Assembly (NCBI GenBank): GCA_943348815.1 | Contig: CALQYT010000001.1 | Coordinates: forward strand, 92,994 to 156,993 | Origin: Candidatus Nomurabacteria bacterium | Lineage (GTDB): Bacteria; Patescibacteriota; Minisyncoccia; Phycocordibacterales; SBAW01 | Length of the DNA stretch: 64,000 nt | Direction of reading: 5' to 3' | Part shown: piece after piece, positions 1 to 38,835 of the stretch | Layout of the letters: every line of letters begins with the position of its first letter | Position numbering within the stretch: position 1 is the stretch's first letter | Translations under genes and position numbers: made by a program | The notes under the pieces: generated by a model | What the model saw: only the letters and a program-made list of their open reading frames with translations | Databases searched by the model: none | What the model was told of the DNA's origin: nothing

Positions 1-595
1 TCGGTTGGAAGATTTGGGATTGGCCCAGCATGTAATCCAGGGTGGGCGAAAAAAGTTTAGTGCCCAAGCACCCCAGCGTATCATTGCTTTAATAGACGAA
101 AAGAAATTGGCCGCGCAATCCATCGCCCGTGAGTTACAAAATCGCTTTGCCGGTGCCCCGGAGCAAAGTTTCGAGGTATTTCAAGGCGAAGATGCGTTTG
201 TGAGTCATGAGTTGGAGATGCTCCGACGTGTACCCGAGGGCTCGCGTATCGATGTCATTACCGGTCTAGAAGAAGATTATCTTTCTGCCATAGGTCATGA
301 GTTTGACGAGTACGAGCGGATACGTTTGGAGAGAAAGATTGAAATTCGTACGGTGTTTGTTTCAACCGGAGTGCAGAAGCAGAAACTTGAAAAGATGCTT
401 AAAGAAAGAAAACTTTGGAGTTATAAAATTTTTCCTGGCGCTGGCACTGGTGTTGTTGATATGGGTATTTGGCACGACTCAATTGTTTACAATATTTTTG
501 GCACCCCGCTTATTTGCTTTGCTCTTACCAACAAAAAAGTCGCGGATGGCTACCGCGACTTTTTCGAGGCTCTCTGGAGCGCATCGAGCAAATAA
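1..595 (+). CDS. TrmB-like winged-helix transcriptional regulator, 5'-truncated by window edge
   Basis: ORF runs off the window start. C-terminal region is a close paralog of the 1780..2544 product (shared ...FNIFG.PL.CF.LTNK..ADGYR.FFEALW... tail). Confidence 0.7.
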   Translation, partial: RLEDLGLAQHVIQGGRKKFSAQAPQRIIALIDEKKLAAQSIARELQNRFAGAPEQSFEVFQGEDAFVSHELEMLRRVPEGSRIDVITGLEEDYLSAIGHEFDEYERIRLERKIEIRTVFVSTGVQKQKLEKMLKERKLWSYKIFPGAGTGVVDMGIWHDSIVYNIFGTPLICFALTNKKVADGYRDFFEALWSASSK

Positions 596-1714
596 TTAAC
601 GAACGATAGATTCGATAACCCAGCTGCCACTTTCTACGTCACCGTCGTTATTGAATTGATACACGCCGCCGTAGCCTTGGTAATTTATTTTTCTTAACTG
701 TGCAGCTATGGCGTCACCGTCGCGGCTTGGGCTATTTTGGATGGCCTGTGCGAGGAGCATCAGCCCATCGTACGCGCGATCTGCGTAGGGGCCGGGTGCT
801 TCGCCATACTTTGTTTTAAACTTTGCTACAAAATCAGGCGAGACGGGGATAGAAACAAAGTACATATCTTTCAGTTCTTCTTTTGATACTGCATTGCGTG
901 AGAGCAAAGAATCGTACACGGTTGAGGCAACTACGACCGGTACCAAAAATTTTAATTCATTACGTTTTTTAGCCAAGGCAACCGCATCCGGATCAAATCC
1001 ACTCCAAAATAATATATCGGCGTTCACGTTTTTTGCTTTCAGCAATGCGGTGGCCATAAGATTTGCTGCATCGGGAGTACCGGACTGGAATGATTCGTCT
1101 AACACCACCGTGGCGCCTGCGTCTTTTGCAGCGGCGCGCATCGCTTTAGCGTTGGTGTCTCCCCAACCGCCCTTGAGTACAACAATAGCGATGCGTTTTT
1201 TATTGTTTTTTTGTAGCCACTCAGCAAGAGGTTGTTCCGAGAGTGCTACGCGCGGTGCGCCGCGGAAGGTGTACGGACTTTTAAAATTTGTATACTCGGA
1301 CGTATCGGCGGGTGCATAGCTCACTGTTTTGGCAGCAGCAATAACCGGGTCAGCCGCATCTTCTAAAAACTCCCATGCCGGCCCCACAATAGCGTTGGGG
1401 CCGTAACTCGTGAGTAGATACTGTGCTGCAGAAACCGATTGTTTAGGATCCGTCTTGTCGTCTTGATAATTGATGTCCACGACAACTCCCTTGGCAGCAA
1501 GATCTGCCTGCGCAAGGTCGAGGCCACGCTTCATATTTAAGGAGTCAGTAGCGGCAGGGCCCGTAAGACCGAGGATTGCGCCTATTTTTATAGATTCGGT
1601 TTTGTGCTGATTAGCCGACCACCCAAAAAAGCCGATCAAAACTACTAATACTAGAGCCCCTAAAGCGGTATATATCTTGTTCATGCCCAAAAAGTGTAGT
1701 GCAGTATGGATCAT
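596..1714 (-). CDS. LivK/type I PBP family substrate-binding protein with N-terminal TM anchor (likely true start MNKIYT near 1684)
   Basis: N-terminal hydrophobic helix, then IKIGAILGLTG; LivJ/LivK-like core. Close paralog of 31306..32400. Confidence 0.8.
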   Translation of the reverse strand: MIHTALHFLGMNKIYTALGALVLVVLIGFFGWSANQHKTESIKIGAILGLTGPAATDSLNMKRGLDLAQADLAAKGVVVDINYQDDKTDPKQSVSAAQYLLTSYGPNAIVGPAWEFLEDAADPVIAAAKTVSYAPADTSEYTNFKSPYTFRGAPRVALSEQPLAEWLQKNNKKRIAIVVLKGGWGDTNAKAMRAAAKDAGATVVLDESFQSGTPDAANLMATALLKAKNVNADILFWSGFDPDAVALAKKRNELKFLVPVVVASTVYDSLLSRNAVSKEELKDMYFVSIPVSPDFVAKFKTKYGEAPGPYADRAYDGLMLLAQAIQNSPSRDGDAIAAQLRKINYQGYGGVYQFNNDGDVESGSWVIESIVR

Positions 1715-1779
1715 TGGTCAATGATTCTTGACTACTAAATTATTGACCATATAGTATTGTTAAATAAAGCTAAAAAACT

Positions 1780-2544
1780 ATGCAGTCAAAAATAATTGAC
1801 CAAAATAAAAAAGCCCTTGAGTCGCTGCAGCAGTTGGGTCTTTCAGAAAAAGAAGCCCTGGTGTACTTTGCCCTACTCTCCCGCAAGGATGTAGGCTCTT
1901 CAAAGCTCGTGTTAGCCACCGGGTTGCACAAACAATTTGTCTACAATGCCCTCGCTCGGCTCGAAGAATTAGGTTTGGTAAAGCATATTTTGCAAAACGG
2001 CCGCAAAAAATTTAGTGCGAGCGCGCCAGGACGTATCCTTTCGCTTGCTGAGGAGAAGAAACTTATTGCACAAAACCTCGTACGTCAATTACAAGATCAA
2101 TATGTACAAACGGTCGAACAAAGCTTTGAGGTATACCAAGGCGCGGATGCGCTTGTGTCGCATGAGCTAGAAATGTTTCGCACTGCACCAATAGGTACCC
2201 GTATCGACGTGATCAACGCATTGCGCGGGCATTACTTTTCGTTGATTGGAGAAGAAAATGAGGAATACGAGCGAATCCGTGCCGAACGAAAGATATCTGT
2301 GCGATACATTGGTCCTGAGTCGGGTCGTGATGAATTTAAAAAGATGGAGAAAAACCGGGTGCTGTGGGAGTATCGCGCCTTCCCCGGTCTCTCGACTGGT
2401 TTAGTTGATATGGCTATTTGGCCAGAGAGTATTGTGTTTAATATTTTTGGCAAACCATTGCTCTGCTTTACTCTCACCAACAAAGAAATCGCGGATGGCT
2501 ACCGCGAGTTCTTTGAAGCACTTTGGAAAGTGTCGAGCAAGTAA
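1780..2544 (+). CDS. TrmB-like winged-helix transcriptional regulator
   Basis: N-terminal LGLSEKEALVYFALL...KLVLATGLHKQFVYNALARLEELGLV is a typical TrmB wHTH. About 170-aa C-terminal domain shared by the paralogs. Confidence 0.8.
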   Translation: MQSKIIDQNKKALESLQQLGLSEKEALVYFALLSRKDVGSSKLVLATGLHKQFVYNALARLEELGLVKHILQNGRKKFSASAPGRILSLAEEKKLIAQNLVRQLQDQYVQTVEQSFEVYQGADALVSHELEMFRTAPIGTRIDVINALRGHYFSLIGEENEEYERIRAERKISVRYIGPESGRDEFKKMEKNRVLWEYRAFPGLSTGLVDMAIWPESIVFNIFGKPLLCFTLTNKEIADGYREFFEALWKVSSK

Positions 2545-3651
2545 TTACTCCGCTTTTACGAATTGCCCTCCTTTGATAGTTTTTAAGACAAGATTTTTAA
2601 GAACGTCGCCGTGGTCGTCGAAAGAGATTACCCCTTCAGCACCTTGGTAATTTTTGAGGTTGTAAAAGTAATTTTTAATACACTCTGTGTTTACCCCGCA
2701 TTTAGTAAGTCCTGCCGCATATAGATTAAACGCGTCGTATCCCATAACTGCAAAGAGTCCTGGCGATCGATGATTAGCGTCCTTGAATGCTTGGGTAAAG
2801 CTCTTTGTCGCGTCGGTTGGAGAGACGTCATTAAATTCGTCAAGGAATATCAGACCCTCGGCGGCACTTCCACCAAGGTTAATCGTTTCGTCACCTATAC
2901 CACCTCTATACGCCGCAAGCTTTGCGCTAACACCCAGCTCTCTTGCCTGTTTTGCTATGAGCCCAGCTTGGCCCGGATATCCAGTCATCATAATGTAGTC
3001 CGGAGCAACGCTCTTTATCTTAGAGAGATACGTCCTAAAATCATTGTCGGTCTGCTTAAATGCATCTGCGGTAACTATCTGTCCGCCTAATTTCTCGAAC
3101 TGAGCACGGAAGTTGACGGCGATGCCTGTTCCCCAATTATCATTTACATGAAGGAGACTAATTTTCCGTGCACCGAAGTCCTTGTAGAGTTTGTCTGCAA
3201 GAGCTTTACTGTCGACTGAAGAATCGAGTTTAAGCCGAAACACATAGTCTCCAGCATCGCGCACCTCCGACTGTGCTGACCCAGTTGACATGACAAGGAC
3301 TTTTGCTGGTTCAGTGATTTTAGCGACAATCTCCGTCCAACATACATCACCGATGATAGCCTGAACGTGATCAATAGTTACCAGTTTGATGGCGGCATCG
3401 GTGGCTGCTTTTACATCACACTTAGAGTCTTCGTAGATAACTTCTATACTGTTCTTCCCATATTGTTTCTGGGCGAGCTCTACCCCAGCACGAACATCCT
3501 CACCGTATGAAGCGGAGGTCTGTGTCAAAGGTACAAGGACACCGATTTTGAGATTTCCAGAGTTTTCTGAATTAGGCTTTTGAGCAAAATACCAAATTCC
3601 ACCTACGGCAATAAGTACCACAACCAATCCAACGAACCATTTTGTGTTCAT
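2545..3651 (-). CDS. LivK-type substrate-binding protein, TM-anchored
   Basis: MNTKWFVGLVVVLIAVGGIWYF TM helix; LKIGVLVPLT, AIIGDVCW, type I PBP pattern. Stop abuts the regulator stop at 2544/2545. Confidence 0.8.
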   Translation of the reverse strand: MNTKWFVGLVVVLIAVGGIWYFAQKPNSENSGNLKIGVLVPLTQTSASYGEDVRAGVELAQKQYGKNSIEVIYEDSKCDVKAATDAAIKLVTIDHVQAIIGDVCWTEIVAKITEPAKVLVMSTGSAQSEVRDAGDYVFRLKLDSSVDSKALADKLYKDFGARKISLLHVNDNWGTGIAVNFRAQFEKLGGQIVTADAFKQTDNDFRTYLSKIKSVAPDYIMMTGYPGQAGLIAKQARELGVSAKLAAYRGGIGDETINLGGSAAEGLIFLDEFNDVSPTDATKSFTQAFKDANHRSPGLFAVMGYDAFNLYAAGLTKCGVNTECIKNYFYNLKNYQGAEGVISFDDHGDVLKNLVLKTIKGGQFVKAE

Positions 3652-3652: not shown

Positions 3653-4759
3653 TTATTCTGCTTTTACGTACTGACCGTTTTTGACTTGCATGATTATGAC
3701 CTCGCCCATAGCGCGATCGCGCTTGTCGTTGATGGTTATAGTGCCTGAAGCCCCTTGGTAGTCTTTTACTTTCAATAATTCTGCCGAAACTTTTGTGATG
3801 TCGGTCGAGCCCGCGCGCTCGATCGCTTGTGCAAGCAACATCACGCCGTCGTAGGTGGTGTTGGCCGAGGTGCCAGGCTCACGGTTGTATTCTTTTTTAA
3901 ACGCATCGACAAACCCTGGTGTTGATGGCCCGTGGACCGGATATACCAAGCCCTCGAGCGCGGCTACCCCTCCTGCTTTGTTCGTAAACGTCTCGTCGGT
4001 CGCGTCGTTAAACCATGCCATCGCGACATTGAGCCCGATGCGTCGCGCCTCGCGTATGCCAAGCCCGGTGATGGTGTTGAAATAAATTACATCGGGGTTC
4101 GCCTCTTTTATTTTTGCCATCGGCGTTCGTACATCGCTAGTTTGTGCGTCCGGTATCGCTTGGTCGGCAACGAGAGTGAGCCCAAGACGCGCTGCGTCTT
4201 GTTTAAATCGTGCGTACAAGTCGTCTTCGTAAAAGCCCGGGTTATGGAATATGGCTACGCGTTTATAGCCTTTGTCGTGGATATACTCTGCAATAGCCGT
4301 GGCTTGCCCGGCGTCGGCAGGCCAGACGCGGAAGAGGTTAGGGCTCCCATCGGTAACGTTGTTTGAGCCGGCTGAGATAGTAATGCCGAGTACGTTGTTA
4401 GGGACAAGTAATGGAGCGACGGCAAGAGTTTGATCGGTCCAACCGGTGAGCAAGAATTTTGCACCACCCGCAATCAAATTTTGCGCGGCGCTCACCGCAT
4501 CTTTGGCAGTCGACTGATTGTCTTGAATATTTAACTGTAGCGGCCGGCCCAATACTCCGCCTTTTGCATTAATTTCTTTAACCGCAAGCATAGCGGCGTC
4601 GCGGTCGTTCTCTCCCCACCCGGCTCCAAAGCTCGAAAGAGAGAAGTCAGCTCCAATTTTAATAGGCTCGCCACTGGCGACCTTTGGCCGCGCGGCAAAA
4701 TACCAAATTCCTCCCAACACCACAATAATGACTGCCGCAATAAGCCACTTGTTATTCAT
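3653..4759 (-). CDS. LivK-type substrate-binding protein, TM-anchored
   Basis: MNNKWLIAAVIIVVLGGIWYF; IKIGADFSLS..; 1-nt spacing to the upstream paralog, so likely a same-strand operon. Confidence 0.8.
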   Translation of the reverse strand: MNNKWLIAAVIIVVLGGIWYFAARPKVASGEPIKIGADFSLSSFGAGWGENDRDAAMLAVKEINAKGGVLGRPLQLNIQDNQSTAKDAVSAAQNLIAGGAKFLLTGWTDQTLAVAPLLVPNNVLGITISAGSNNVTDGSPNLFRVWPADAGQATAIAEYIHDKGYKRVAIFHNPGFYEDDLYARFKQDAARLGLTLVADQAIPDAQTSDVRTPMAKIKEANPDVIYFNTITGLGIREARRIGLNVAMAWFNDATDETFTNKAGGVAALEGLVYPVHGPSTPGFVDAFKKEYNREPGTSANTTYDGVMLLAQAIERAGSTDITKVSAELLKVKDYQGASGTITINDKRDRAMGEVIIMQVKNGQYVKAE

Positions 4760-4790: not shown

Positions 4791-5807
4791 CTACTGCAAT
4801 TTTATTGCCGAACCACTCTCAATTTTTTTGAGGATGATCTCACTTTTATACACGCCCTCGACAAATTTATTTGAGGATTCGAGTTTTTGTTTTACGCAGG
4901 CAACATCGTTTTTGCACTCCACTGCAAGCGGAGCCAAAGTTTCGGCGGCGAGTTTGGCGAGACCGTACACGGCGCCTTCGGAGCCTTTGATATTAGCGGG
5001 GAATGAGTACGTGACGCCCTCAACCAACGGACGCACTCCCGGAAGTTCTGCAACATAGGTGCTCCACACGGGCGTAGTCATTTTGAGTTGCTGCATTTTA
5101 GCAGTTGCTCCGGCAAAAAAGAAAGAGATATCTGGCGCATAGATGGCATCGACGCCCGCTGCTTTAATTTTGGTAAGCACAGGCAAGAGGTCGGTGTTGC
5201 CGTCGAGAATGCGCGTGTCTACAACAATCATGCCTGCAAAGTTAGCGCGGAAGCTTTTGGCATGCGTGTCAGAAAAGGAGTTGGCATAGGTTACGAGCGC
5301 AACTTTTTTGTAGCCTTTGGCATACATTTGAGCAGCCACAAACTTTGACTCATCCTCGAGTGAGTACTGGATATTAAAGAAGTAGCCGCCACTCTTTGCA
5401 TACAAATCTTTAGAGGCGGCCGAGGGCACCACTGCTACCACACCGGCACTCTGCAACAGCGGCACCACAGCCTCTTGGGGGCTGCCGCATCCGGGGCCAA
5501 TAATAAATTTTACGCCGTCGACGCTCGTGAGTTTTTGAAATGCCGATATCGCGGTTTTGGCATCGCACTTTTCGTCCTCAAAAATAAATTCGACATTCGA
5601 GCTGCCGGCGGCGGCAAAGATACCTTTGCGCACCTCCTCTCCATATTGGGCAAAGGCGTCGGTGAGCGGCACGATGACCCCAATCTTGATAGGCGTGTTA
5701 GGTGCGGGCGCCGGTTGGTGGGCCCAGACGTAGATACCCAGCCCCACAACGATGGCCGCCCCTAGTGCTATTAGTGTTTGCTTCATGCCCCGACAGAGTA
5801 CGCTCAT
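4791..5807 (-). CDS. LivK-type substrate-binding protein, TM-anchored (start probably MKQTL)
   Basis: TM helix then IKIGVIVPLTDAFAQYGEEV; FIIGPGCGS motif. Confidence 0.75.
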   Translation of the reverse strand: MSVLCRGMKQTLIALGAAIVVGLGIYVWAHQPAPAPNTPIKIGVIVPLTDAFAQYGEEVRKGIFAAAGSSNVEFIFEDEKCDAKTAISAFQKLTSVDGVKFIIGPGCGSPQEAVVPLLQSAGVVAVVPSAASKDLYAKSGGYFFNIQYSLEDESKFVAAQMYAKGYKKVALVTYANSFSDTHAKSFRANFAGMIVVDTRILDGNTDLLPVLTKIKAAGVDAIYAPDISFFFAGATAKMQQLKMTTPVWSTYVAELPGVRPLVEGVTYSFPANIKGSEGAVYGLAKLAAETLAPLAVECKNDVACVKQKLESSNKFVEGVYKSEIILKKIESGSAIKLQ

Positions 5808-5913: not shown

Positions 5914-6723
5914 ATGGCTCTCTCTGGCAAGCTACAAAATCTCCTACAATTAGCACCGCATGAGGCGCGGGTGCTTGATGTGCTGACACCCAAGCCGCAG
6001 CGACCGAGCGAGGTCGTGCGTGCGGCGGGTGTGCCTAATGCTAGCGCCTACTTAGCATTTGATTTGCTTTGCAAACGCGGACTCGCCGAAAAGAAAAAAA
6101 TAAAAAATAAAACTGTTTGGTTGCGCGCCGCTCCCCTACCGATTGCCGAGGTGCTTGGGGGCGCCATCAACGAGCTTGAGCATTTAAAAAATTCTTCGGT
6201 GTTTGAGATTAAACACAAAGATGATACGAGCGTTACCATACACCGTGGAGGCGATGCGCTCCAGAAATTAATTTTTAGAGCTGTCGATTTAAATCCACAC
6301 GAGCGGTTTCATATTTTGCAGGGAGCTAATATGGACGATAGTTGGATGGAGATGGTTGGCTATCAAAACGTACTTATCATCAACCGCATGCTCAAGGCCA
6401 AAGAGATTATTGGCGAATCGTTTATCCCTGAAAATTATTTTAAAAATCTTCTGCCCTTTTGGGGGCGCGAGTGGGCCGAAAGTTATGTTGATAGGTTAAA
6501 TGTGGTGTACCTTATTCCGCCCGAATTTATGCCCTCGCATGCAGAAATAATTTTATTCCGCGATCGGGTACTCGTGCTGCATTTTAAAGAAGAAATCGCG
6601 GTGGAGATGAAGGATGCCGAAATGCTCTTGATGTTTAAAATGTTGTTTGAATATTTAAAAACTTTTGCGCGCAAGGTCGACCCCAAAGAGTTTTTGGCTG
6701 CTCACTTGCAGCAAACCAACTAG
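5914..6723 (+). CDS. divergent wHTH regulator, distant TrmB-like paralog
   Basis: N-terminal HTH-like segment (RVLDVL...PSEVVRAAGVPNASAYLAFDLLCKRGLA). C-terminal tail pattern LLMFKMLFEYL resembles the paralog tails. Overlaps the livG 3' end by 4 nt. Confidence 0.55.
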   Translation: MALSGKLQNLLQLAPHEARVLDVLTPKPQRPSEVVRAAGVPNASAYLAFDLLCKRGLAEKKKIKNKTVWLRAAPLPIAEVLGGAINELEHLKNSSVFEIKHKDDTSVTIHRGGDALQKLIFRAVDLNPHERFHILQGANMDDSWMEMVGYQNVLIINRMLKAKEIIGESFIPENYFKNLLPFWGREWAESYVDRLNVVYLIPPEFMPSHAEIILFRDRVLVLHFKEEIAVEMKDAEMLLMFKMLFEYLKTFARKVDPKEFLAAHLQQTN

Positions 6724-7454
6724 CGACCGAGATAAGCTTCGATTACTTTAGAATCTCGTAAAACCTCTTCGGGTGTGCCGTGGGCCAAGACTTTGCCGGA
6801 GTCTAAAACGTAGCAAGTGTCGGCCAACTCGCGCACCAAGGTCATATCGTGCTCGACTAAAATAACGGCAGCCCCCTTGTTTTTTAGCTCGTGCAAAATT
6901 TCTGAAACTATCTTGCGCATTTCGGTAAACAGGCCCGCAAAGGGCTCGTCAAAAAAGTAGATATTCGATTTCATGGCTATAGCACGGGCTATTTCAAGCA
7001 ATTTGCGTTGGCCGTAGGACAAGTTTTCGGCATGAGCCTCGCGCTTTTCCCACAAACCAACTTTCTTTAAAATATCCTCGGCTTGGTCGAGGTGAAATTT
7101 TCCATGCCTCTCAAACAACGCGCCCCACACGTTACGCTCAGTGAGTACAACTAAAATATTCTCTAACACTGAGAGCTGCCCTATTAGTCTTACATTCTGG
7201 AATGTCCGGGTAATTCCATAGCTTGCTATTTGTGAACGTTTGATATTTGTAAGTTTGACGGAGTCACTTATGACGACGGCTCCACCATCCATTGGCAGCA
7301 TGCCGGTGACGGTATTGATGAAAGTAGTTTTGCCCGATCCGTTTGGTCCAATGAGTGCCGTAATTTTTCCTGCATCAAACTCAACATCAACGTGGTCAAC
7401 AGCATGCACCCCGCCGAATCGTTTGACTAGCTGTTTGGTTGCAAGCGCGCTCAT
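6720..7454 (-). CDS. livG: branched-chain amino acid ABC transporter ATP-binding protein (LivG/LivF type)
   Basis: Walker A GPNGSGKTT, signature LSYGQRKLLEIARA, Walker B IYFFDEP. The only ABC ATPase of this type in the window. Confidence 0.8.
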   Translation of the reverse strand: MSALATKQLVKRFGGVHAVDHVDVEFDAGKITALIGPNGSGKTTFINTVTGMLPMDGGAVVISDSVKLTNIKRSQIASYGITRTFQNVRLIGQLSVLENILVVLTERNVWGALFERHGKFHLDQAEDILKKVGLWEKREAHAENLSYGQRKLLEIARAIAMKSNIYFFDEPFAGLFTEMRKIVSEILHELKNKGAAVILVEHDMTLVRELADTCYVLDSGKVLAHGTPEEVLRDSKVIEAYLGR

Positions 7455-7489: not shown

Positions 7490-8626
7490 CTATTGAATAT
7501 CAGTTGGTTTGCCGTCTTTGATTACTCGGACGGTGAAACCAAGATCCGAGTTGCCCTGCGCATCGAGAGAGTAGGTGCCCATGAGCCCTTTGAAGTCTTT
7601 AACGTTCGAGCTTAACCACTGCTGTACCTTTGTGCTGTCATCTCCGACGGCGCGCAGAGCGTTGGTGAGCATCATAATGCCGTCGTAGGTTGATGCTGCG
7701 TGAAACGGCACTACCGAGTCGGTGTTGTAAGTAGTTTTGTAACGCTCGAAGAATGTTTTGGTTGTGGGGTTGTTGAGATCGTACTTAGGATCGGCAAAGT
7801 AAATTCCGTCGAGCGATCCGAGAATTTCTTTGACGCTCCCATTGGTCGCGAGGGTAAAGTCAGTAAAGATCGGCGGCGTGTAGCTTGCCTCGCGTGCTTG
7901 CTTGATAAACTGTGCTGCATCGGTCCCAAGCTGTGACAACACAAGGAGTGCTTGTGGTTGTTTGGAACGAATCTTTGCTATCGTGGTGCGATAATCTTTG
8001 GTACCAGGTTGGAATTCTTCAGAAGCTACAATCGTACCGCCTTGGTCTTTAATCGTTTGCTCAAAAGTTTTCTGGATATCCAACGTGTATTCAGTCACTG
8101 CGGTGATCGTGGCAACTTTTTTGTAGCCCATCTTCAACATTGCGTTAGCTAGGTCGCGCCCAGCCAGGATGTCAGAGTTAGCAATGCGGAAGATATAATC
8201 ACCCGCCTCGTCCACATTTTTGCCGCCGGTGACCGGCGTGAGATATACCGCGTGTTGTGCGTTAGCAAGCGGGGCGGCTGCGAGAGTCCCGTTACTACAG
8301 GTGCCACCAATAATATATTTGATACCGTCTGCTTGGATAAGTTTTTGAGCAGCGTTAAGCCCACCCTTACTGTCGCAACCAGCATCTTGCACCTCAAGAG
8401 TGAGCGGACGGCCATTGATACCGCCGTTTTTATTTACGTCTTCAACAGCGAGTTTAGCCGCATTAACCATGTTCTCTCCTGCTGCCGCAAAATCACCAGT
8501 CAAAATAGTTGAGACGCCAATCGTAATTGGTTCACCACTCGCCTGCTTTGGTTTACTAAAACCAATCCACACTGCAATCACTACGATTACTACAACCAAA
8601 ACCCCGATCCAAATATTTTTGCTCAT
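7490..8626 (-). CDS. LivK-type substrate-binding protein, TM-anchored
   Basis: MSKNIWIGVLVVVIVVIAVWIGF; ITIGVSTILTGDFAAAGE; GGINGRPL; YIIGGTCS. Confidence 0.8.
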   Translation of the reverse strand: MSKNIWIGVLVVVIVVIAVWIGFSKPKQASGEPITIGVSTILTGDFAAAGENMVNAAKLAVEDVNKNGGINGRPLTLEVQDAGCDSKGGLNAAQKLIQADGIKYIIGGTCSNGTLAAAPLANAQHAVYLTPVTGGKNVDEAGDYIFRIANSDILAGRDLANAMLKMGYKKVATITAVTEYTLDIQKTFEQTIKDQGGTIVASEEFQPGTKDYRTTIAKIRSKQPQALLVLSQLGTDAAQFIKQAREASYTPPIFTDFTLATNGSVKEILGSLDGIYFADPKYDLNNPTTKTFFERYKTTYNTDSVVPFHAASTYDGIMMLTNALRAVGDDSTKVQQWLSSNVKDFKGLMGTYSLDAQGNSDLGFTVRVIKDGKPTDIQ

Positions 8627-8629: not shown

Positions 8630-9751
8630 TTATTTAATTTGATTAATTTCTCCGTTTTGAACTTCGAAAATATGGAGAGGGAAGGTCGCCCGATAGGTGT
8701 CATCAAAGGTTACCTGGCCCGAAACACCACCATACGATTTTAGATTTTTCATCGCGTTAAGGATCGCTGTGCGGTCGCCGTTGTTGTCGACAAACAGTTT
8801 AAGTGCCAGTGCTGTTGCGTCATAGGCCTGACCCGCCGGTAGCGTAGGTTTGTCGCCGTAGGCTGCTTGGTAGCGAGTCACAAAGTCGGTGGTGTAGAAG
8901 TTAGGTGAGATAAATTGTAGACCATCCGAAAGTCCTTTCGTTTCTTCCACCATGTGGGTATCAACTTCCTCGCTGTACATTTTGCCTTTAAATCCCAACT
9001 GCTTGGCGTTTTTTACAAAGTCGTAAAATTTATAATACGTGCCAAAAAACAGTGATTCAGGCTTGCTTGCCAAGACTTTGGTTACTGCAGAGCGTGAGTC
9101 TTTGGTATCGGGTAGCGTTACTTCGTGCGCGGTTACGGTGCCACCAAGCTCGGTAAACTTCCTGGCAAACGCATCAGAAATTTCGCTCTCCCAAGTATCT
9201 CGCGTGCTTAATATCCCCACACTCCGCACCCCTTGGTTGTACACGTACTCCGCAATCTGCTCGGTCTCGCGGGTTGGGTCGGGCCACATCACCACCGGGT
9301 TGTAATATTTGCCTCGGTCTTGCGGCCGCGTCGTGCCAATACTTACTTGCGGAACGCCGCTCTGAGCAACGAGCGGTAAAAGTGTGGTCATCTCGATTTG
9401 GATCATCGGCCCTACAACCATATCGACGTTGTCGACGTTTATGAGTTTTTGGTAACTGTCGAGTACTTGCTTTGGATCAGCGCGTGTATCTTCGTATATC
9501 ACTTGCACATTGGTACCCGTGTGAGCTTTTTTAAAATCAGCAATAGCGAGGTTGGTGGCATTGCGCGCCTGCTCGCCATAGGCGGTAAAGTCGCCACTCA
9601 ATAAATACACAGCACCAAGTTTTATAGTGCCAGCTTGGTGCTCGGACTTTTGAGAAATCACGTAGACTCCAACTATCACCGCAAGCACGAGCAGTATTAC
9701 GGTATTTGCCGTCCAAAACTTTCTAATATCGTTATCGCTCCACCGGTACAT
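8630..9751 (-). CDS. LivK-type substrate-binding protein, TM-anchored
   Basis: TM helix, IKLGAVYLLSGDFTAYGE, MVVGPM. More divergent paralog. Confidence 0.75.
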   Translation of the reverse strand: MYRWSDNDIRKFWTANTVILLVLAVIVGVYVISQKSEHQAGTIKLGAVYLLSGDFTAYGEQARNATNLAIADFKKAHTGTNVQVIYEDTRADPKQVLDSYQKLINVDNVDMVVGPMIQIEMTTLLPLVAQSGVPQVSIGTTRPQDRGKYYNPVVMWPDPTRETEQIAEYVYNQGVRSVGILSTRDTWESEISDAFARKFTELGGTVTAHEVTLPDTKDSRSAVTKVLASKPESLFFGTYYKFYDFVKNAKQLGFKGKMYSEEVDTHMVEETKGLSDGLQFISPNFYTTDFVTRYQAAYGDKPTLPAGQAYDATALALKLFVDNNGDRTAILNAMKNLKSYGGVSGQVTFDDTYRATFPLHIFEVQNGEINQIK

Positions 9752-9795: not shown

Positions 9796-10491
9796 CTATG
9801 GCAGGACTCTTCGCACAAATTGCAGGATCCGAGGCGGGTTTGGCTCGAACATCCGGAGCCACGACCACTGGACGATGATGGCAGTGATGATTATTCCGCC
9901 ACCACTCATCGCGATCTTGAAGAACGTCTCGTTGGTTTGGAAGGCATACGCTACCCAAACTCCCGTCGAAATATAGAACGAAACGTAGAGCGAGATATCG
10001 ACGGCGCCTGTCTTTCCACTTCTACGGAGTTTTAGGAACTGCTGAATAAATGCTCCCCATAGCCCGATGGCGAAGAACATATAGACCGCACCCCAATAGG
10101 TGGCACCGGCTTCGATGACCGGCATCAATGCATACGCCGAGCCCACGATCCGCTCCCGCTCTGTAAGACCGCGAAAGCGGATGATCCCTCGCAGGATTGG
10201 GATCTGGGCTACGGCGGTGACGAAGCAATTAATAATCATCGCCATACTGTGGAGATAAAACCCGTATATTCCACAGAGCAAGAAGAACCAGAACGTGTAG
10301 AGAAACAGCTCGGTCTCTACCGACTCCGCGCTCTCCTTTTCCCAAATGGTTTTGCCTTGTTGAATGATCCCCCACGTCTCGAGCACGGTGAAGAGGAGCA
10401 TGAGCACGGCGCTCAGGGTGGAGTAATTCCACCCAAAGTTTTGGTATTCGACCGTCCATTCAAGGGCGGCCCAGAAGATGCTCTCGAGCAT
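9796..10491 (-). CDS. polytopic membrane protein of unknown function (about 6-7 predicted TM helices)
   Basis: Hydrophobic segments throughout; no recognisable family motif. Embedded in the SBP array. Confidence 0.55.
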   Translation of the reverse strand: MLESIFWAALEWTVEYQNFGWNYSTLSAVLMLLFTVLETWGIIQQGKTIWEKESAESVETELFLYTFWFFLLCGIYGFYLHSMAMIINCFVTAVAQIPILRGIIRFRGLTERERIVGSAYALMPVIEAGATYWGAVYMFFAIGLWGAFIQQFLKLRRSGKTGAVDISLYVSFYISTGVWVAYAFQTNETFFKIAMSGGGIIITAIIVQWSWLRMFEPNPPRILQFVRRVLP

Positions 10492-11845: not shown

Positions 11846-11988
11846 ACGGCCACACTATGTGCTTGTTGGCAAGTATAGTCAATAGATTTTGACCAAAAAT
11901 AGGCTTATTTTAGAGCTTTTGAGGGCAATTTAGGTAGCGTGTTGTCAGACTCAATTGACAAAGTACATTTTAGCCTTATATTGCAAGG

Positions 11989-25219: not shown

Positions 25220-25258
25220 GCCGACGTTTTAGTCGGCTCCCCGACCAAAGCGTCGGGG
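25220..25258. repeat. GC-rich double-hairpin miniature repeat (GCCGAC-N6-GTCGGC + CCCCGAC-N6-GTCGGGG)
   Basis: Near-identical (inverted orientation) to 53152..53190 and similar to 54760..54801. Confidence 0.6.
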
Positions 25259-25263
25259 CGAAA

Positions 25264-26754: not shown

Positions 26755-26763
26755 TGCATTTTG

Positions 26764-26834: not shown

Positions 26835-26901
26835 AGTTTCGAAATGAATATAGCATGCTTTTCTGTTAGGATTAAGCAGTCAGGCTAAAAGTGCAGATAA
26901 T

Positions 26902-30414: not shown

Positions 30415-31227
30415 ATGCACACTACGCTCGCGCAAAAAATTGTTGATGTTGTCTCGCGCGGGCCGTGCGCAAAGTCGGAGCTTTTAGAAAAGCTTACGAA
30501 AGAAAGGGGAGTGACTATTCAGGGAGTTTATAAAGCGCTGAAACAACTGAGAGCTGAGGAAATTGTGACCGTTCATAAAAACACCGTGAGTCTTTCGGCA
30601 GTATGGATTCAAAAACAGTTTGATCACATTTCCGAGGTCGCGTCCCGCTACCAAGCCCCGGTCTATCAGAGTTATTTTGGCGCTCTAAAACCAGGCGAGA
30701 AAGTGACCTACCGGTTTAAAACGCTTAAAGAATTGCATGCGTTTTGGGTGCACGCGATTATGATCGCCGTACGCGGCAAACATAAGGAGGCTACCATCAT
30801 CACTCTTGCGCCCCACGATTGGTTTGAGTACTTGCGCCCAGGGATGTCGGGCATGTGGGATAAAGTTTTGGGGTCACATAACCCGCATCTTTCCATCATG
30901 ACCCACTCGGGGGTAGAAGAAAAAAAGAAATCAACTCATCCAGGAGTACGCAAGTGGCAGCGGCTCTTTAATGTTAACCCTCTCAAACAAAAAGAATCGG
31001 TTTATATTAATATTGTAGGAAATTTAATCTTTGAAGCACATCTAGACGAGCCGACGGTCTCAAAAATACGCGACGTTATGGTTGATAAGCAGGTTGATGT
31101 CGAAAAAATTCTTTCAACGGCGGGGAAATTTAGATTTACCGTAGTAAATGACCCCCGGAAGGCAAACTCGTATAGAAAGCGTTTGTATAAGTACTGTCCG
31201 CCTGAGGTTTTTAAACTTGAAGTTTAA
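30415..31227 (+). CDS. wHTH-containing protein, distant paralog of the TrmB-like set
   Basis: N-terminal SELLEKLTKERGVTIQGVYKALKQLRAEEIV helix-turn-helix. Start ATG overlaps the preceding stop (TAAATG). Confidence 0.5.
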   Translation: MHTTLAQKIVDVVSRGPCAKSELLEKLTKERGVTIQGVYKALKQLRAEEIVTVHKNTVSLSAVWIQKQFDHISEVASRYQAPVYQSYFGALKPGEKVTYRFKTLKELHAFWVHAIMIAVRGKHKEATIITLAPHDWFEYLRPGMSGMWDKVLGSHNPHLSIMTHSGVEEKKKSTHPGVRKWQRLFNVNPLKQKESVYINIVGNLIFEAHLDEPTVSKIRDVMVDKQVDVEKILSTAGKFRFTVVNDPRKANSYRKRLYKYCPPEVFKLEV

Positions 31228-31305
31228 AAGTGAGCACTACCGGTTTGTTTTGTTGACCCGGGAAGAATAGGTAGTTATAGTCGCGCCAGCCTTAATGGCT
31301 TTTAT

Positions 31306-33765: not shown

Positions 33766-35007
33766 ATGCTCAATCAAATGCAGATGGCCGCGCAACTCTA
33801 CCAGGGTGGCGACCACGCAAGACTCCTCGAATATCTTTGTGCGATCGGGATGTCAGAACCCCATGCGCGTGAGTTGGCCGAGGACAAACTGACGAGACCT
33901 GAGCCCGAAACTCTTGCTCAGCTTTTGGCCAAGGTCGGCAGCAATGCGTGCACCACAACAAAGGTGGTACGCGCACTTGGCCTTCAAAGCACGACCAAAA
34001 CGCCGCAAAACGTCCATGCGTGGCGAATGGCGGCAGCGCTCGGGGGATTCCCCGTCCGCATTGGGCCAAGATATGTGGTGTCGGGCAACACGAGCCCGTT
34101 CTTAAAGGCGAGGGGCGGACTCGAGCATGTGCCCTTTGCCAAACTCCTGTTGGGCGAACCGGTGGGCACCCCGCTTTCGGCGGCGCTTGCGTCAGTGCTG
34201 CCGTCGACTCAAGGTGTGCGCGTTGCTCGGCAGATCCACGAAGCACGGTGCGTTGAGCCAAACGAAACCATTCGTGCGCTCATTGCACAAACTCTGCGAA
34301 TTGCGCGTGAGCGCGGCTCACTGACGCTCTGCGGGGCTTGTTGCCCCGACTATGAGTATGTGCGGACGGGCAATCCGTCTGCGCCCTTCAAATACACCTT
34401 CGCCAAAGTGGGCGATGGGGTGGGGCTTGTCGCCAAGGCGCTGATTGAGACGATGGTCCAACTGCACACGGTCTTTAGCGAGGTCGTGCCGGTTAAGATT
34501 GTGGTCTATATGGCCGACACCGAAGTGCGAGGTGATGGGCTGTGCGAGAAGCTCGGTGTCACGCCGGAGGAGTTTCTGTCCCGGTGTGTCAGATCAACCA
34601 AAGCGGTCCAGGTTGCGCTCGGTGAGCGTGGCATTGTTGCTGAAGTGCGGATGTTCCACGAGCACTTCGGTCAGCGTTTTGACAACCACGAGTCGCAGGC
34701 GCGCAAACGGATGCTCGTAGGCGACTACGGCCTTATCGCGCACTTGACCAAGGACCCGAACAAGTTGGTGCGGGAGCTGGCGGAGAAGTATCGCAGCTTC
34801 TACGTCAACTGGTATGGGCCCATGACTGATGCGGAGATCGAAAGACGCATCATACTGCAGGCGGCCGATTATGCTGCCTACGGAAAGCTGCTCGCCGATG
34901 AGCACGACGGCTGTTTGCAGGTTGCGGCGGACCGGCCGGACATGCAGATATTCGGGGCATTCTACAAGCATGTGTCCTACCTTGTTCGTCGTCGATACTA
35001 CGAGTAG
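33766..35007 (+). CDS. hypothetical protein (413 aa) in a GC-rich island
   Basis: Long ORF, about 60% GC versus about 50% in flanks; no recognisable family motifs. CGACCPDYEY cysteine cluster. Confidence 0.55.
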   Translation: MLNQMQMAAQLYQGGDHARLLEYLCAIGMSEPHARELAEDKLTRPEPETLAQLLAKVGSNACTTTKVVRALGLQSTTKTPQNVHAWRMAAALGGFPVRIGPRYVVSGNTSPFLKARGGLEHVPFAKLLLGEPVGTPLSAALASVLPSTQGVRVARQIHEARCVEPNETIRALIAQTLRIARERGSLTLCGACCPDYEYVRTGNPSAPFKYTFAKVGDGVGLVAKALIETMVQLHTVFSEVVPVKIVVYMADTEVRGDGLCEKLGVTPEEFLSRCVRSTKAVQVALGERGIVAEVRMFHEHFGQRFDNHESQARKRMLVGDYGLIAHLTKDPNKLVRELAEKYRSFYVNWYGPMTDAEIERRIILQAADYAAYGKLLADEHDGCLQVAADRPDMQIFGAFYKHVSYLVRRRYYE

Positions 35008-35077
35008 TAGTTTTCGCGCCCGGGCTTTAGGCTCGGGCGCGGGGACTTTTTATAAATTTCTAAGTTAGGATTACTTT

Positions 35078-36559: not shown

Positions 36560-37290
36560 ATACGCTGCCAGAGCATCTCAAAAATTTCGCGAACCGTTTT
36601 GGCCACTTCTTCGTTTTCGATAACGATCCCCTGGAGGTTTTTAAAATCTTGCACGCGTACCACGTCGCCCACCGTATCGATCGAAACTTCTGAAGAATAT
36701 TGTTCGTAGGGTACGGTCTTCACTTTGCGATTGTGAGTTGCATCAAGCACGCGATATTCGTGTAGATTTTCGTGTAGGGGAGCAATGGCTCTGGTCGAGC
36801 CTCCTCCTTTTTTGATCTGAGCAACGTAATCTTTTTTAAAATAATCTCGCAGTTCTTTTGGTGCGTTGTGATCGGTTGCCCAAAATGCAACCGTCTCTTT
36901 TCCCTCCAAATCTTTGGCACGGTATTCCAAAATTTGTTTTATACCGGCGATACCTTCAAAATAAATTGTGTTTACTTTTGTGGCCTCGCCTTTGGTGAGC
37001 GCCAAAATTTCTGGCAGCTTTTTCTTGGCCAAATCGAGTCGCTCTTGTGCCAGTGCAAAGGCCTCTTCGGGCGGACGGGCGACATAGAGTTGCTTTTTCT
37101 CTCGCGGAATTTGCACCACCAGACCTTTTTTGATCAACTCTTCCAAAATTACGTACGTGGTCGGGCGTTTGAGCCCACTTTTGGTCGCAATAGAGTAGGC
37201 CGGTGCCCGCCCCAGCTGCAAAAGTGCCAAATAAACGGCTGCTTCTTTGTCGCTCAGCCCTAATAACTGCAGCGCGTCTTTCGTTTCCAT
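36556..37290 (-). CDS. TrmB-like winged-helix transcriptional regulator
   Basis: LGLSDKEAAVYLALLQLGRAPAYSIATKSGLKRPTTYVILEELIKKGLV; tail REIFEMLWQRI. 3' end overlaps the cupin gene by 4 nt. Confidence 0.8.
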   Translation of the reverse strand: METKDALQLLGLSDKEAAVYLALLQLGRAPAYSIATKSGLKRPTTYVILEELIKKGLVVQIPREKKQLYVARPPEEAFALAQERLDLAKKKLPEILALTKGEATKVNTIYFEGIAGIKQILEYRAKDLEGKETVAFWATDHNAPKELRDYFKKDYVAQIKKGGGSTRAIAPLHENLHEYRVLDATHNRKVKTVPYEQYSSEVSIDTVGDVVRVQDFKNLQGIVIENEEVAKTVREIFEMLWQRI

Positions 37291-37728
37291 CTTTTCAGTT
37301 TAGAGGGGAAATACGATACTGTCAACAATTTTGACAACCTAAATCAGAATTATAAAAATAAGCCTCAAAATAAGGTTATTTAATAATTAAAATAAAACCA
37401 TACTTTTGACATAAGTGTAATCTTTACGCATACTCTACCTAGGCTCAAACCGAGGAACTGGCCATGAAAATCAACGTCCTTCTGCATCATGCGGACAATG
37501 GGAAGTTGCTTGAGCTAAAAGAAGAACGGATATGAAGTTGTTCCCTCAAGAGGCGGTTCTGCGCCGATCGATAGTAGTGACATGATGGATGCGCTTCGGA
37601 AGTGGCTGCACCAGAAAGGAGAAGAAAAAATACCTTTGCTCTTTATTTGAGCAAAGACGGGGGATCGGTGGGTCCCCCGCTCAGCTGAGAGCCTGATGTC
37701 TTCGGGCTCTCTTTGAGAAGTTTTATAT

Positions 37729-38835
37729 TTGTTTATCGATTTAATTTATATGAAAAAAATATTACTTGGTCTCGGTGTATTGGTCGTGCTTGGTGTGGGG
37801 GTCGTGATAGTTGGTCATCCATCTGCGCAAAAAGGATCGGTTTCTCTGGGTGTTATCGCCGGAGTAACGGGTGATTACGCCGCTGCCGGGGAAGGGTATG
37901 TTAAAGGATTTGAGTTGGCGCGCGAAGAGTGGAATAAATCGCATGCGTTGCAATTTGAAGCGGTGTTTGAGGATGATGGCTTTAATGCGCAAAAGGGTGT
38001 TGCTGCTTACAACAAAATAAAATCCGTTGATAAGCCGGACGCGTATGCAATTGTTTCTTCGTTTACGATCGACGCAATTGCGGACAACTTACACCAAGAA
38101 GGTTTGCCAGTGGCGCTTGGGTTTGAACAGGGTGTGGCGGCGACTGACGACAATATCTTTCAGGTATTCCCGGCAGCGCGGCCTATTATGGAAGGCTTGG
38201 GTAAGCAAGAAAAAAGCGATGGGTATAAAAAGCCCTTGGTGTTATTTAGTAACAATAGCCCGGTATACCAAAACTTTGTGGCAGGTTTTGTCGACGGGTA
38301 CGGCGAGGATGTTGTTAAAGAAGTTATAAGTGGTACCGATGGTAATACTATCCGTGCGGCGGCAACTCGTGCGCTCGCCGACAGGCCAGACTCGATTAAC
38401 TTCTTTATGGATCCGCCGGCCGGTGCACTGTTAGCTAAAGAAATACTTTTGCAGTCAAAAGGTAACCATCCGCCGTTCGTGTTCGATCAGAGCATACAGT
38501 CAGGCAAGCCGGATTATGAAAAGGTGTTTGGTAAAGGTTTGGCAGCGCTCGATGAGTCTATGGTTGTGCTCTCTAGAAATGATCTGACCCAAGACTTCAA
38601 AACTCTCTACAAAAATAAATACCAGAGTGAGCCGCCATTTGGTGCTGATATTGGGTACAACTCATTTGAGTTGTTGGCCTCGACCTATGCAAGTTCGCCA
38701 CAGACGTGGATCAAAAATATGAAACAAGCGGACTTTGTGGGTGCCGATGGAAAGGTATTATTTAACCAAGTTGGCTTACGGGTGCCCAATCTCGCGTTCG
38801 GCACGCTTAAAAACGGGGAAGTGGTGCTGCCGTAA
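37729..38835 (+). CDS. divergent LivK-type substrate-binding protein, TM-anchored
   Basis: TM helix, VSLGVIAGVTGDYAAAGEGY. Preceded by an about 300-nt structured leader. Confidence 0.7.
   Translation: MFIDLIYMKKILLGLGVLVVLGVGVVIVGHPSAQKGSVSLGVIAGVTGDYAAAGEGYVKGFELAREEWNKSHALQFEAVFEDDGFNAQKGVAAYNKIKSVDKPDAYAIVSSFTIDAIADNLHQEGLPVALGFEQGVAATDDNIFQVFPAARPIMEGLGKQEKSDGYKKPLVLFSNNSPVYQNFVAGFVDGYGEDVVKEVISGTDGNTIRAAATRALADRPDSINFFMDPPAGALLAKEILLQSKGNHPPFVFDQSIQSGKPDYEKVFGKGLAALDESMVVLSRNDLTQDFKTLYKNKYQSEPPFGADIGYNSFELLASTYASSPQTWIKNMKQADFVGADGKVLFNQVGLRVPNLAFGTLKNGEVVLP

Follow-up and report, generated by a model that had tools for sequence, protein, structure and literature searches.

The 64,000-nt stretch of Candidatus Nomurabacteria DNA analysed here (contig CALQYT010000001.1; hereafter the window) carries a single importer locus of the Liv/HAAT type, whose operon is stretched to approximately 42 kb by 17 anciently diverged genes for solute-binding proteins (SBPs). 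These genes stand in modules with genes for TrmB-like regulators, and the genes of one translocator are embedded among them. We interpret the locus as a locally regulated repertoire of signal-anchored binding specificities sharing one Liv-type translocator, and we assign this interpretation a probability of about 0.62. An earlier note on this DNA had proposed a modular, regulator-gated repertoire of binding proteins feeding a single translocator. Its modular part agrees with the periplasmic binding protein (PBP) and TrmB-like family matches, the divergent modules (94 of 115 regulators), the embedded translocator and the pocket divergence described below; the gating by regulators is a step that we infer. 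Genes are designated S (SBP) or R (regulator) with the position at which they begin in Table 1.

Binding proteins

All 16 open reading frames (ORFs) that the earlier note had listed as type I PBP/LivK-like genes exceed the gathering cut-off of Pfam Peripla_BP_6 (PF13458), with matches that span the full two-lobe domain (best E 1.4e-64), and most also match ANF_receptor and Peripla_BP_5. A hidden Markov model (HMM) built from the SBPs recovers exactly these 16 when all window ORFs of at least 120 aa are scanned. The proteins match the solved HAAT binding proteins 4gnr, 3td9 and LivJ (1z15) at E values of 1e-14 to 1e-31; S22783, for example, matches 4gnr at 5e-31 and 1z15 at 4e-26, S19509 matches 4gnr at 2.5e-30, and S596 matches 4n0q at 2e-14. 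The 16 genes are thus type I PBPs at the positions previously listed, and the scaffold motifs quoted for them are present. A 17th member, S0 (358 aa, with a Peripla_BP_6 match), lies just left of window position 1.

The mean pairwise identity among the SBP paralogs is 24% (range 17-47%), and closer pairs are limited to S596/S31306 (47%) and S12730/S14071 (36%). With paralogs averaging 24% identity, the array is not a recent expansion; the SBPs appear to be ancient paralogs that underwent no recent burst, and the term "hyper-expanded", in the sense of recent duplication, does not fit them.

Each of the 17 SBPs begins with a basic N-terminus and an uncharged segment of 17-21 residues that ends in aromatic residues, and a polar linker of approximately 8-12 residues connects this segment to the first beta-strand, "IKIG". 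No AXA motif and no lipobox Cys was found in any of the 17. This pattern, consistent with the signature of an uncleaved signal anchor, upholds the earlier description of one N-terminal transmembrane helix per SBP without a lipobox Cys. Among the SBPs of relatives (see below), 270 of 297 have an uncharged N-terminal stretch of 16 residues or more, and a lipobox-like motif occurs in only 2; SBPs of the lineage thus seem to be attached generally through a signal-anchor helix. The C53-C78 disulfide pair of LivJ is kept in 9 of the 17 SBPs, which fits an extracytoplasmic location.

Liv-type translocator

The translocator is complete, with two BPD_transp_2 permeases (LivH and LivM) and two ATPases (LivG and LivF), one of which carries a BCA_ABC_TP_C tail. 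Profile matches to BPD_transp_2 and ABC_tran bear out the one LivH/LivM pair and the one LivG-type ATPase noticed previously in the window. The claim that LivF is absent proved wrong, since a gene for a UrtE/LivF-type ATPase lies just left of position 1 and its apparent absence is a window-edge artefact. Leftward from that position lie, in order, the rest of the truncated R0, S0 and the LivF/UrtE-type ATPase gene, with a further TrmB-like gene 2 kb beyond. The 76 kb that we inspected of an 87.5-kb contig contain a single translocator and 17 SBP genes. Each translocator gene or gene pair belongs to an SBP operon: livF follows S0, livG follows S10745-S8630-S7490, and livHM follows S19509.

None of the NCBIfam equivalog cut-offs for LivH, LivM, LivG and LivF was reached (LivG, 198 vs 362; LivF, 174-177 vs 441). 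The livG product matched UrtD at 3.3e-61 and LivG at 1.2e-58, both below the equivalog cut-offs, and urea-transporter models scored equal to or above the Liv models on the translocator genes. Membership in the translocator therefore appears to hold at the family level, short of a specific branched-chain function.

Two further genes lie within the translocator operons. A gene with the 23S_rRNA_IVP fold (PF05635) separates livH from livM, exactly bracketed by a 45-nt inverted repeat (18101-18145 and 18542-18586) that is 73% complementary. IVP genes occupy the same livH/livM position in some relatives (loci L011, L032, L054 and L059), and the insertion looks like an rRNA intervening-sequence cassette placed in an mRNA operon. 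As PF05635 has the Avd fold, a diversity-generating retroelement was considered and rejected; the scanned ORFs contained no reverse transcriptase domain, and there were no near-identical repeats of the template/variable type. The SWEET/PQ-loop-like gene within the operon of S10745 and livG encodes a product with weak similarity to MtN3_slv (E 8.8e-5, below the cut-off) and SemiSWEET (1.4e-4); its counterpart in the closest relative (L008/L011) stands directly after livM.

Divergent modules and candidate operators

Minus-strand units, each headed by an SBP gene, face a plus-strand regulator gene over an AT-rich spacer of 65-143 bp (Table 1). The S19509-livH-(IVP)-livM unit has its own promoter-like site (20741->20714) after a terminator-like hairpin (20773-20749). 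Housekeeping genes separate the main array from three plus-strand SBP genes, namely S31306 and S32410, which follow R30415, and S37729, which is divergent from R36556.

The best-scoring sigma-70-like matches fall in the module spacers. Over the whole window, the number of promoter-like matches shows no excess over shuffles, and thus only the placement of the best matches in the spacers is informative. A palindrome of the form TGTCA-N7/8-TGACA (at most one mismatch) occurs in 15 of 78 module spacers, whereas shuffled spacers contain 2.3±1.3. Twelve of the 15 occurrences, among them those of the R11989 and R36556 spacers, start 44-49 nt (about 46 nt) before the regulator start codon. Near-perfect versions are kept in orthologous modules, for example TGTCAAGATTCTTGACA, and modules of the S32410 type have a different conserved palindrome, ATTCGGCGAAAAGCGAAT. 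The -35 box of the regulator promoter falls on the right half of the palindrome, and a leftward -35 box on the left half. The palindrome could be an autoregulatory operator common to both divergent promoters, or it could merely reflect constrained back-to-back promoters.

At their other ends, the regulator genes meet the next convergent gene stop to stop, either 0-1 bp apart or overlapping by 4 bp (595/596, 2544/2545, 6720-6723, 12729/12730, 17229/17230 and 22781/22783). Junctions as tight as these (0-4 bp) cannot accommodate a terminator. Of the convergent junctions of this kind in relatives, 37 of 84 measure 5 bp or less. Convergent read-through and antisense effects are possible at these junctions.

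TrmB-like regulators

The TrmB winged helix-turn-helix (wHTH) domain, PF01978, was detected at E<=0.01 in 9 of the 11 ORFs previously called TrmB-like regulators; the misses are the ORF at 5-595, which is truncated by the window edge, and that at 30415-31227. Ten of the 11 belong to the TrmB family with a TrmBL2-like architecture, and the assignment of R30415 is doubtful, with no Pfam match and no BLAST link. R5914 (22.4 bits) and R41507 fall below the Pfam gathering threshold for PF01978; they resemble each other over their full length (BLAST E 1e-19), and R5914 is weakly similar to R11989 (BLASTP E 2e-5). Identities among the regulator paralogs are mostly 15-30%, except for R0/R1780 (60%) and R22017/R24045 (39%).

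The regulator family profile aligns over its full length with archaeal TrmBL2 (5box/5bpd, E 7e-11). The tail motif F..(L)W pointed out in the earlier note is present and aligns with the C-terminus of this protein, and a near-invariant Tyr (Y46 of R11989) aligns with the RTY of the TrmBL2 recognition helix; Tyr50 is the DNA-recognition residue of TrmB proteins (PMC4158304). An AlphaFold2 (AF2) model of R11989 (pLDDT 89) gave TrmBL2 (5box, E 4e-14) and TrmB (3qph, 2e-9) as the best Foldseek matches in the PDB; for the C-terminal domain the matches are PLD-like folds, among them NucT and PLD3. No regulator paralog matches the TrmB effector (sugar-binding) domain PF11495. The missing PF11495, the length of approximately 250 aa and the presence of only a PLD-like subdomain in the model indicate that the regulators are TrmBL2-like proteins, with a wHTH, a coiled coil and a PLD-like domain and without the sugar-binding barrel, and are not TrmB sensu stricto.

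R30415 has no PF01978 match and no BLAST similarity to the other regulators, its hhalign probability is 12%, and two homologues were found among 5.8e9 proteins. A three-sequence AF2 model is of low confidence (pLDDT 66), with TrmB (3qph, E 9e-3) as its top Foldseek match in the PDB. Together these searches yield weak hints of TrmB paralogy, and we leave R30415 as doubtful. R41507 is divergent, over a 39-bp spacer, from a Vut_1/YhhQ-type gene for a vitamin/queuosine-precursor transporter (40781-41467), and the TrmB-like family may pair with uptake genes other than those for SBPs.

Loci in related genomes

We scanned species-representative genomes via livM and obtained 80 loci with flanks of ±10 kb, which were annotated with HMMs of the window SBPs and regulators and with the translocator proteins. 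Since the flanks were limited to ±10 kb and many contigs are short, the counts of SBPs and regulators per locus are lower bounds. Most of the 120 listed LivM homologues are at least 70% identical (range 68-100%), nearly all are 288 aa long, and the named ones come from Paceibacteria/Patescibacteria. At one extreme the locus is the canonical S-H-M-G-F operon, and at the other 20 kb contain at least 12 SBP genes; the insertions number from 0 to at least 12 for SBPs and 0-6 for regulators. Loci have a median of 3 SBPs; at least 5 occur in 29 of 81 loci, and at least one TrmB-like gene in 43 of 81. The order H-M-G-F is maintained, and SBPs or regulator/SBP modules intervene between the translocator genes. 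In one relative (81% LivM identity), at least 7 SBP genes are arranged collinearly with the window, several of whose modules are missing there; its 20-kb locus ends in a truncated livF. A Taylorbacteria genome shows the same modular design with livHM and livG in separate modules, and another relative has a compact two-SBP operon without regulators. The array is an old feature across Paceibacteria, and neither a peculiarity of this genome nor a recent expansion in it.

For 94 of 115 regulators in the window and the related loci, an SBP gene is divergently transcribed just upstream (median spacer 120 bp); this count takes in the window and its flank, with two regulators counted twice. The identity matrices of regulators and SBPs in these 94 pairs are correlated (Mantel r 0.72, reached in 0 of 999 permutations), and the partner of the nearest regulator is the nearest SBP in 54 of 63 cases, compared with ~43% by chance. 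Much of this co-variation is shared descent, yet it shows that modules are inherited as units.

Of the 297 SBPs of relatives, 99 fall into orthogroups of the window's 17 types and 198 fall outside, and the lineage-wide repertoire is therefore much larger. S4791 has 10 orthologues (47-74% identity), of which 8 stand after livG. The 8 orthologues of S8630 are mostly in the M-G slot. Upstream of livH are found 9 of 11 orthologues of S19509 and 13 of 14 of S20786. The 18 orthologues of S32410 lie mostly between livM and livG, where the S37729 type (17 orthologues) also sits. Since orthogroups mostly keep their operon slot, the locus seems to be an old one with multiple SBPs, in which genes have been gained, lost and to some extent rearranged. 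In the present genome, two types, S32410 and S37729, have left the core.

One relative (assembly CAZBVQ01) has two livM loci on different contigs (L015 and L084), each with its own SBP set, and "one translocator per genome" is thus not universal in the lineage. Apparent insertions of 370-400 bp in livM of eight relatives were dismissed, as tblastn showed that LivM was matching its neighbouring paralog LivH there, in the C-terminal half.

Predicted ligand pockets

The SBPs were aligned with LivJ, in a sequence identical to 1z15_A. As pocket residues we used a list based on the LivJ/LivK structures, which comprises S79, A100-T102, Y202, E226 and others. The full set of LivJ residues that bind the alpha-amino acid is kept in none of the 17 paralogs; this loss bears on branched-chain amino-acid specificity and not on fold membership. 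S19509, S20786 and S22783 are closest to the LivJ pocket, and S19509 is the most LivJ-like. The predicted pocket of S4791 is hydrophobic (consensus Y18/G79/A101/A102/L121/F150/Y226), and that of the S32410 type, with D79/N101, is quite unlike LivJ.

The earlier note had asked whether divergence concentrates in the pocket, and it does. Among the 17 paralogs, pocket columns are less identical than other columns (0.15 vs 0.245, P~0.025), while within seven orthogroups drawn from relatives they are conserved above average (0.74 vs 0.62, P~0.005). Between orthogroups, distinct consensus residues are more frequent in the pocket (5.4 vs 4.0 of 7, P~0.0006). Distinct, selected ligand specificities would predict such a pattern.

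Proposed mechanism and points against it

The uncleaved N-terminal helix would hold the SBPs on the outer face of the membrane. Each SBP may capture a different small solute, amino-acid-like in the case of S19509, S20786 and S22783 and of other chemistries in the case of S4791, S32410 and S37729. The SBPs would compete for docking on one LivH-LivM-LivG-LivF translocator, and a genome-reduced auxotroph would gain broad uptake at the cost of one membrane and ATPase gene set. Each regulator would bind a module-specific palindrome overlapping the back-to-back -35 boxes and thereby control itself and the adjacent SBP gene or genes, by repression or by activation. The analogy is with TrmB in Thermococcales, which keeps the SBP-first malE ABC operon repressed through a palindrome until the transported sugars release it (PMC4158304).

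Several points weigh against this interpretation. The sharing of the translocator is deduced from gene linkage alone, in 76 kb of the genome, and a second translocator is possible; one related genome does have two livM loci (L015 and L084). The regulators do not have the known TrmB effector subdomain (PF11495) and resemble TrmBL2, so that ligand sensing by them is hypothetical, and TrmBL2 in Thermococcales is a non-specific chromatin protein (PMC4158304). Because livG and livF are often co-transcribed with regulator-linked SBPs, simple, independent repression of a module would also shut off the shared ATPases. Large SBP arrays without regulators, present in many relatives (L028, L032 and L070 among them), indicate that regulation is not essential to the array. 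The coincidence of the palindrome halves with -35 hexamers could mean only that promoters stand back to back. Finally, the pocket analysis draws on a residue list from background knowledge of the LivJ/LivK structures and on an alignment at 20-25% identity that is uncertain in the C-lobe.

Alternative explanations

The TrmB-like proteins might be general DNA-packaging proteins or global repressors of the TrmBL2 type, next to SBP genes only incidentally. TrmBL2, their best match in sequence and structure, itself has no effector domain and binds DNA non-specifically (PMC4158304); R51616 and R41507 are not linked to SBPs, and large arrays without regulators exist. A chromatin protein of this kind would be single and abundant, in contrast to the 12-13 diverged paralogs (mostly 15-30% identity) found in approximately 80 kb. 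Around 80% of the regulators are divergently paired with an SBP gene, the identities of regulators and SBPs co-vary, and conserved palindromes specific to the module type stand at a fixed distance from the regulator start. We therefore regard incidental adjacency as unlikely.

It is also improbable that the SBPs take no part in transport and act instead as adhesins or surface receptors, by which an episymbiont might recognize its host, for example, or as sensors with an unknown partner. Here and in approximately 80 relatives, translocator and SBP genes share operons, the SBPs standing between H, M, G and F, and orthogroups hold their operon slot. The pocket positions are conserved within orthogroups, as binding of small ligands predicts, although the full LivJ amino-acid-binding signature occurs in no SBP. 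A receptor role would suit the surface tethering and the high diversity of the SBPs, and the 198 SBPs of relatives outside the window's 17 types resemble a fast-turnover surface repertoire. The earlier note had offered a sensing system built from PBP folds as a second reading; the SBPs have cytoplasmic N-termini of just a few residues, and genes for a kinase, chemoreceptor (MCP) or cyclase are missing from the locus, which speaks against it.

Quite improbable, in our estimate, is that the SBPs serve several translocators encoded elsewhere, so that their clustering is a neighbourhood effect and the one translocator an illusion of the window. In relatives with the canonical organization, the operon is a compact S-H-M-(S)-G-F, and the expanded loci insert extra SBPs into that same operon. 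The search found one livM locus in 78 of ~79 scanned genomes, which is weak evidence as the search was pattern-based, and genomes of the group are small (716 kb in the complete relative OZ246403.1). The limited view of the genome (~76 kb) and the two livM loci of one relative leave this explanation its small share.

That the array is an assembly artefact of collapsed or chimeric repeats can be set aside, since the gene order is identical on contigs of three independent assemblies/runs (ERZ27280317, ERZ27280321 and ERR5863124), the paralogs are too dissimilar (17-47% identity) to be mis-assembled, and the species with 81% LivM identity carries a collinear, shorter array.

Features of the window

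The rest of the window is housekeeping, with genes for the CCA-adding enzyme, tRNAs, RNase Y, ClpP, trigger factor, NusA, PGK, TIM and RecJ. Homologues of R51616, a PF01978-type protein, number 543, are 50-71% identical and are named Kaiserbacteria, Adlerbacteria, Paceibacterota and similar; together, the homologues of R51616 and LivM carry the names Candidatus Kaiserbacteria, Adlerbacteria, Taylorbacteria, Paceibacterota and Patescibacteria, which places the source organism among the Paceibacteria (Parcubacteria) of the candidate phyla radiation. The source genome is probably well under 1 Mb.

The longest ORF of the CCA-adding enzyme (25264-26856) overlaps a tRNA-Gly(GCC) gene (26763-26834) on the same strand; its start is over-extended, since the public call is 518 aa. 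Starts are likewise over-called in S12730, S20786, S4791, R5914 and R11989, and the true start of S12730 is probably ~21 codons downstream of that of the longest ORF. A GC-rich palindromic element resembling repetitive extragenic palindromes (GTCGG..CCGAC-AAAGC-GTCGGGG) has three copies (25209-25268, 53152-53201 and 54775-54811), which lie within or close to intergenic regions and include both orientations; it has no Rfam match. A 413-aa ORF without a Pfam match (33766-35007) lies in a locally GC-rich stretch (56%), followed by a strong terminator-like hairpin with an 18-bp stem (35009-35047). A Fic/DOC-family gene (46191-46577, minus strand) is directly downstream of clpP. Two long spacers (37291-37728, 438 bp; 24837-25263, 427 bp) each contain several GC-rich hairpins, and the former also holds a 23-codon ORF. 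A riboswitch or other RNA was considered for both spacers and rejected, as neither gave an Rfam match even at E 0.1.

Table 1. Genes, divergent units and candidate control sites of the SBP/regulator/Liv locus (window positions unless noted).
Feature	Position	Strand	Description
S596	596-1714	-	372 aa; Peripla_BP_6 E 1.5e-37; predicted signal-anchor residues 14-34; divergent from R1780
S2545	2545-3651	-	SBP, 368 aa; Peripla_BP_6
S3653	3653-4759	-	SBP, 368 aa; Peripla_BP_6
S4791	4791-5807	-	SBP, 338 aa (public annotation 331 aa); shorter subfamily
S7490	7490-8626	-	SBP, 378 aa; Peripla_BP_6
S8630	8630-9751	-	SBP, 373 aa; Peripla_BP_6
S10745	10745-11845	-	SBP, 366 aa; heads operon ending in livG; promoter-like site 11882->11854
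S12730	12730-13917	-	SBP; 12/12 promoter match 14005->13978
S14071	14071-15198	-	SBP, 375 aa; Peripla_BP_6
S15240	15240-16364	-	SBP, 374 aa; divergent from R16480
S19509	19509-20660	-	SBP, 383 aa; co-operonic with livH-livM
S20786	20786-21934	-	SBP; divergent from R22017
S22783	22783-23922	-	SBP, 379 aa; divergent from R24045
S31306	31306-32400	+	SBP, 364 aa; promoter-like site 31253-31281
S32410	32410-33522	+	SBP, 370 aa; Peripla_BP_6
S37729	37729-38835	+	SBP, 368 aa; most divergent paralog
livF	L005 13123-13800, ~1.5 kb left of position 1		UrtE 5.9e-64, LivF 4.9e-51
livG	6720-7454	-	ABC_tran and BCA_ABC_TP_C; last gene of S10745 operon
livM	17230-18102	-	288 aa from second Met; BPD_transp_2 E 1.5e-46, LivM 2.1e-52
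livH/livM insertion	18101-18586		23S_rRNA_IVP four-helix-bundle gene 18170-18541 (-), PF05635 E 3.3e-16
livH	18581-19447	-	288 aa; BPD_transp_2 E 8.1e-37, LivH 7e-35
SWEET/PQ-loop-like gene	9796-10491	-	231 aa, multi-pass membrane protein, inside SBP-livG operon
R0, C-terminal 196 aa	5-595	+	cut by window edge; full gene 257 aa (L005 11120-11893, PF01978); 60% to R1780
R1780	1780-2544	+	254 aa; PF01978 E 3.5e-11; stop abuts S2545 stop
R5914	5914-6723	+	divergent TrmB-like subgroup with R41507
R11989	11989-12729	+	246 aa; TrmB-like; modelled
R16480	16480-17229	+	249 aa; PF01978 in public annotation; stop abuts livM stop
R22017	22017-22781	+	254 aa; TrmB-like; 39% to R24045
R24045	24045-24836	+	263 aa; TrmB-like
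R30415	30415-31227	+	270 aa, wHTH-like, upstream of S31306; TrmB membership doubtful
R36556	36556-37290	-	244 aa; TrmB-like; divergent from S37729
R41507	41507-42262	+	TrmB-like subgroup with R5914; not SBP-linked
R51616	51616-52362	+	248 aa; widely conserved "core" family member; not SBP-linked
Unit S596			divergent from R1780
Unit S4791-S3653-S2545			divergent from R5914
Unit S10745-(SWEET-like)-S8630-S7490-livG			divergent from R11989
Unit S15240-S14071-S12730			divergent from R16480
Unit S20786			divergent from R22017
Unit S22783			divergent from R24045
Unit S0-livF	outside window		divergent from R0
S596/R1780 divergent promoter region	1715-1779		65 bp; inverted repeat TGGTCAAT (1715-1722) / ATTGACCA (1742-1749)
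Candidate operator TGTCAGACTCAATTGACA	11943-11960		overlaps -35 of R11989 promoter (11/12 match, 11955-11982)
Palindromes CTTGACAAAAGTCAAG and TTGTTGATGTAACTCAACAA	23988-24035		S22783/R24045 spacer; overlap back-to-back promoter-like sites
Candidate operator TGTCAACAATTTTGACA	37320-37336		back-to-back -35 boxes; conserved in orthologous modules

Comparison with known systems

In E. coli, more than one SBP (LivJ and LivK) works on one translocator, and liv is under the control of Lrp. LivJ/LivK and LivHMGF (HAAT, TC 3.A.1.4) belong to the same families as the SBPs, both permeases and both ATPases described here, and the LivJ disulfide recurs in part of the SBPs as noted above. E. coli has 2 periplasmic SBPs, whereas 17 predicted signal-anchored SBPs are encoded here; their pocket residues have diverged from LivJ, with the full alpha-amino-acid signature in none, and LivM, at 288 aa, is short. 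Modules with predicted promoters and TrmB-like regulators of their own divide the present operon.

Several paralogous SBPs per translocator are also known from DppA1-A5 of P. aeruginosa, which have different specificities and feed DppBCDF (PMC4206461). That system is of the peptide/cluster C family and has five SBPs without interleaved dedicated regulators, in contrast to the HAAT family and 17 SBPs of the present locus. The Bug/TTT SBPs, over-represented in Bordetella and Rhodoplanes and read as a specificity repertoire (PMC5994714, PMC11452294), show a similarly large excess of SBP genes over membrane components. They serve a secondary transporter, however, and their mostly "orphan" genes are scattered in large proteobacterial genomes, unlike this contiguous, operon-embedded array in a sub-megabase genome. 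In monoderm bacteria, GlnPQ/OpuA-type importers have tethered or fused binding domains (PMC11331510, PMC2861598), and there too binding domains of differing specificity are kept at the membrane to serve one translocator. In those importers, two to four domains per complex are joined covalently to the permease, whereas the present locus encodes separate proteins in 17 genes.

The TrmB gene and trehalose/maltose ABC operon of Thermococcus/Pyrococcus (PMC4158304) share with our modules a TrmB-family wHTH gene in an SBP-first importer operon, a palindrome at the SBP promoter (a candidate in our case) and the DNA-recognition Tyr. The present regulators differ from TrmB in their length of ~250 aa without the C-terminal sugar-binding subdomain, in their bacterial setting with sigma-70-type promoters, in the palindrome itself, and in their many paralogs, one to each module. 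With TrmBL2 (5box/5bpd) they share the C-terminal F..W motif as well as the wHTH, coiled coil and PLD-like domain. TrmBL2 occurs as one abundant protein that binds DNA non-specifically, whereas the 12-13 paralogs here are diverged, pair with particular modules and accompany conserved palindromes.

We found no description of this SBP/regulator/Liv arrangement in bacteria of the candidate phyla radiation (CPR) in the literature searched, the coverage of which was incomplete. What sets the locus apart from these precedents is the 17:1 scale in one locus of a tiny genome, the TrmBL2-like regulators per module in a bacterium, and the variability across the lineage.

Implications

CPR/Patescibacteria have minimal biosynthetic capacity, and their uptake from hosts or neighbours is largely unknown. 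Here, approximately 40 kb are devoted to 17 distinct binding proteins for one importer, and the design recurs with other SBP sets in dozens of related species. The locus thus offers a concrete handle on the nutrient dependencies of uncultured ultra-small bacteria, since SBP ectodomains are easy to express and screen. It would also represent, in extreme form, the competition of many SBPs for a single ABC translocator, and it presents archaeal-type TrmB/TrmBL2 proteins as apparent local regulators in a bacterial lineage with few transcription factors.

More tentatively, the liv operon of Paceibacteria may be an evolutionary platform that collects interchangeable SBP or regulator/SBP cassettes, one translocator serving a lineage-variable pan-repertoire. 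The proteins of TrmBL2 architecture would then form a new class of bacterial one-component regulators, in which the PLD-like domain senses the imported solute. If this is true, the SBP set would read out the host- or community-derived metabolites on which each ultra-small symbiont depends.

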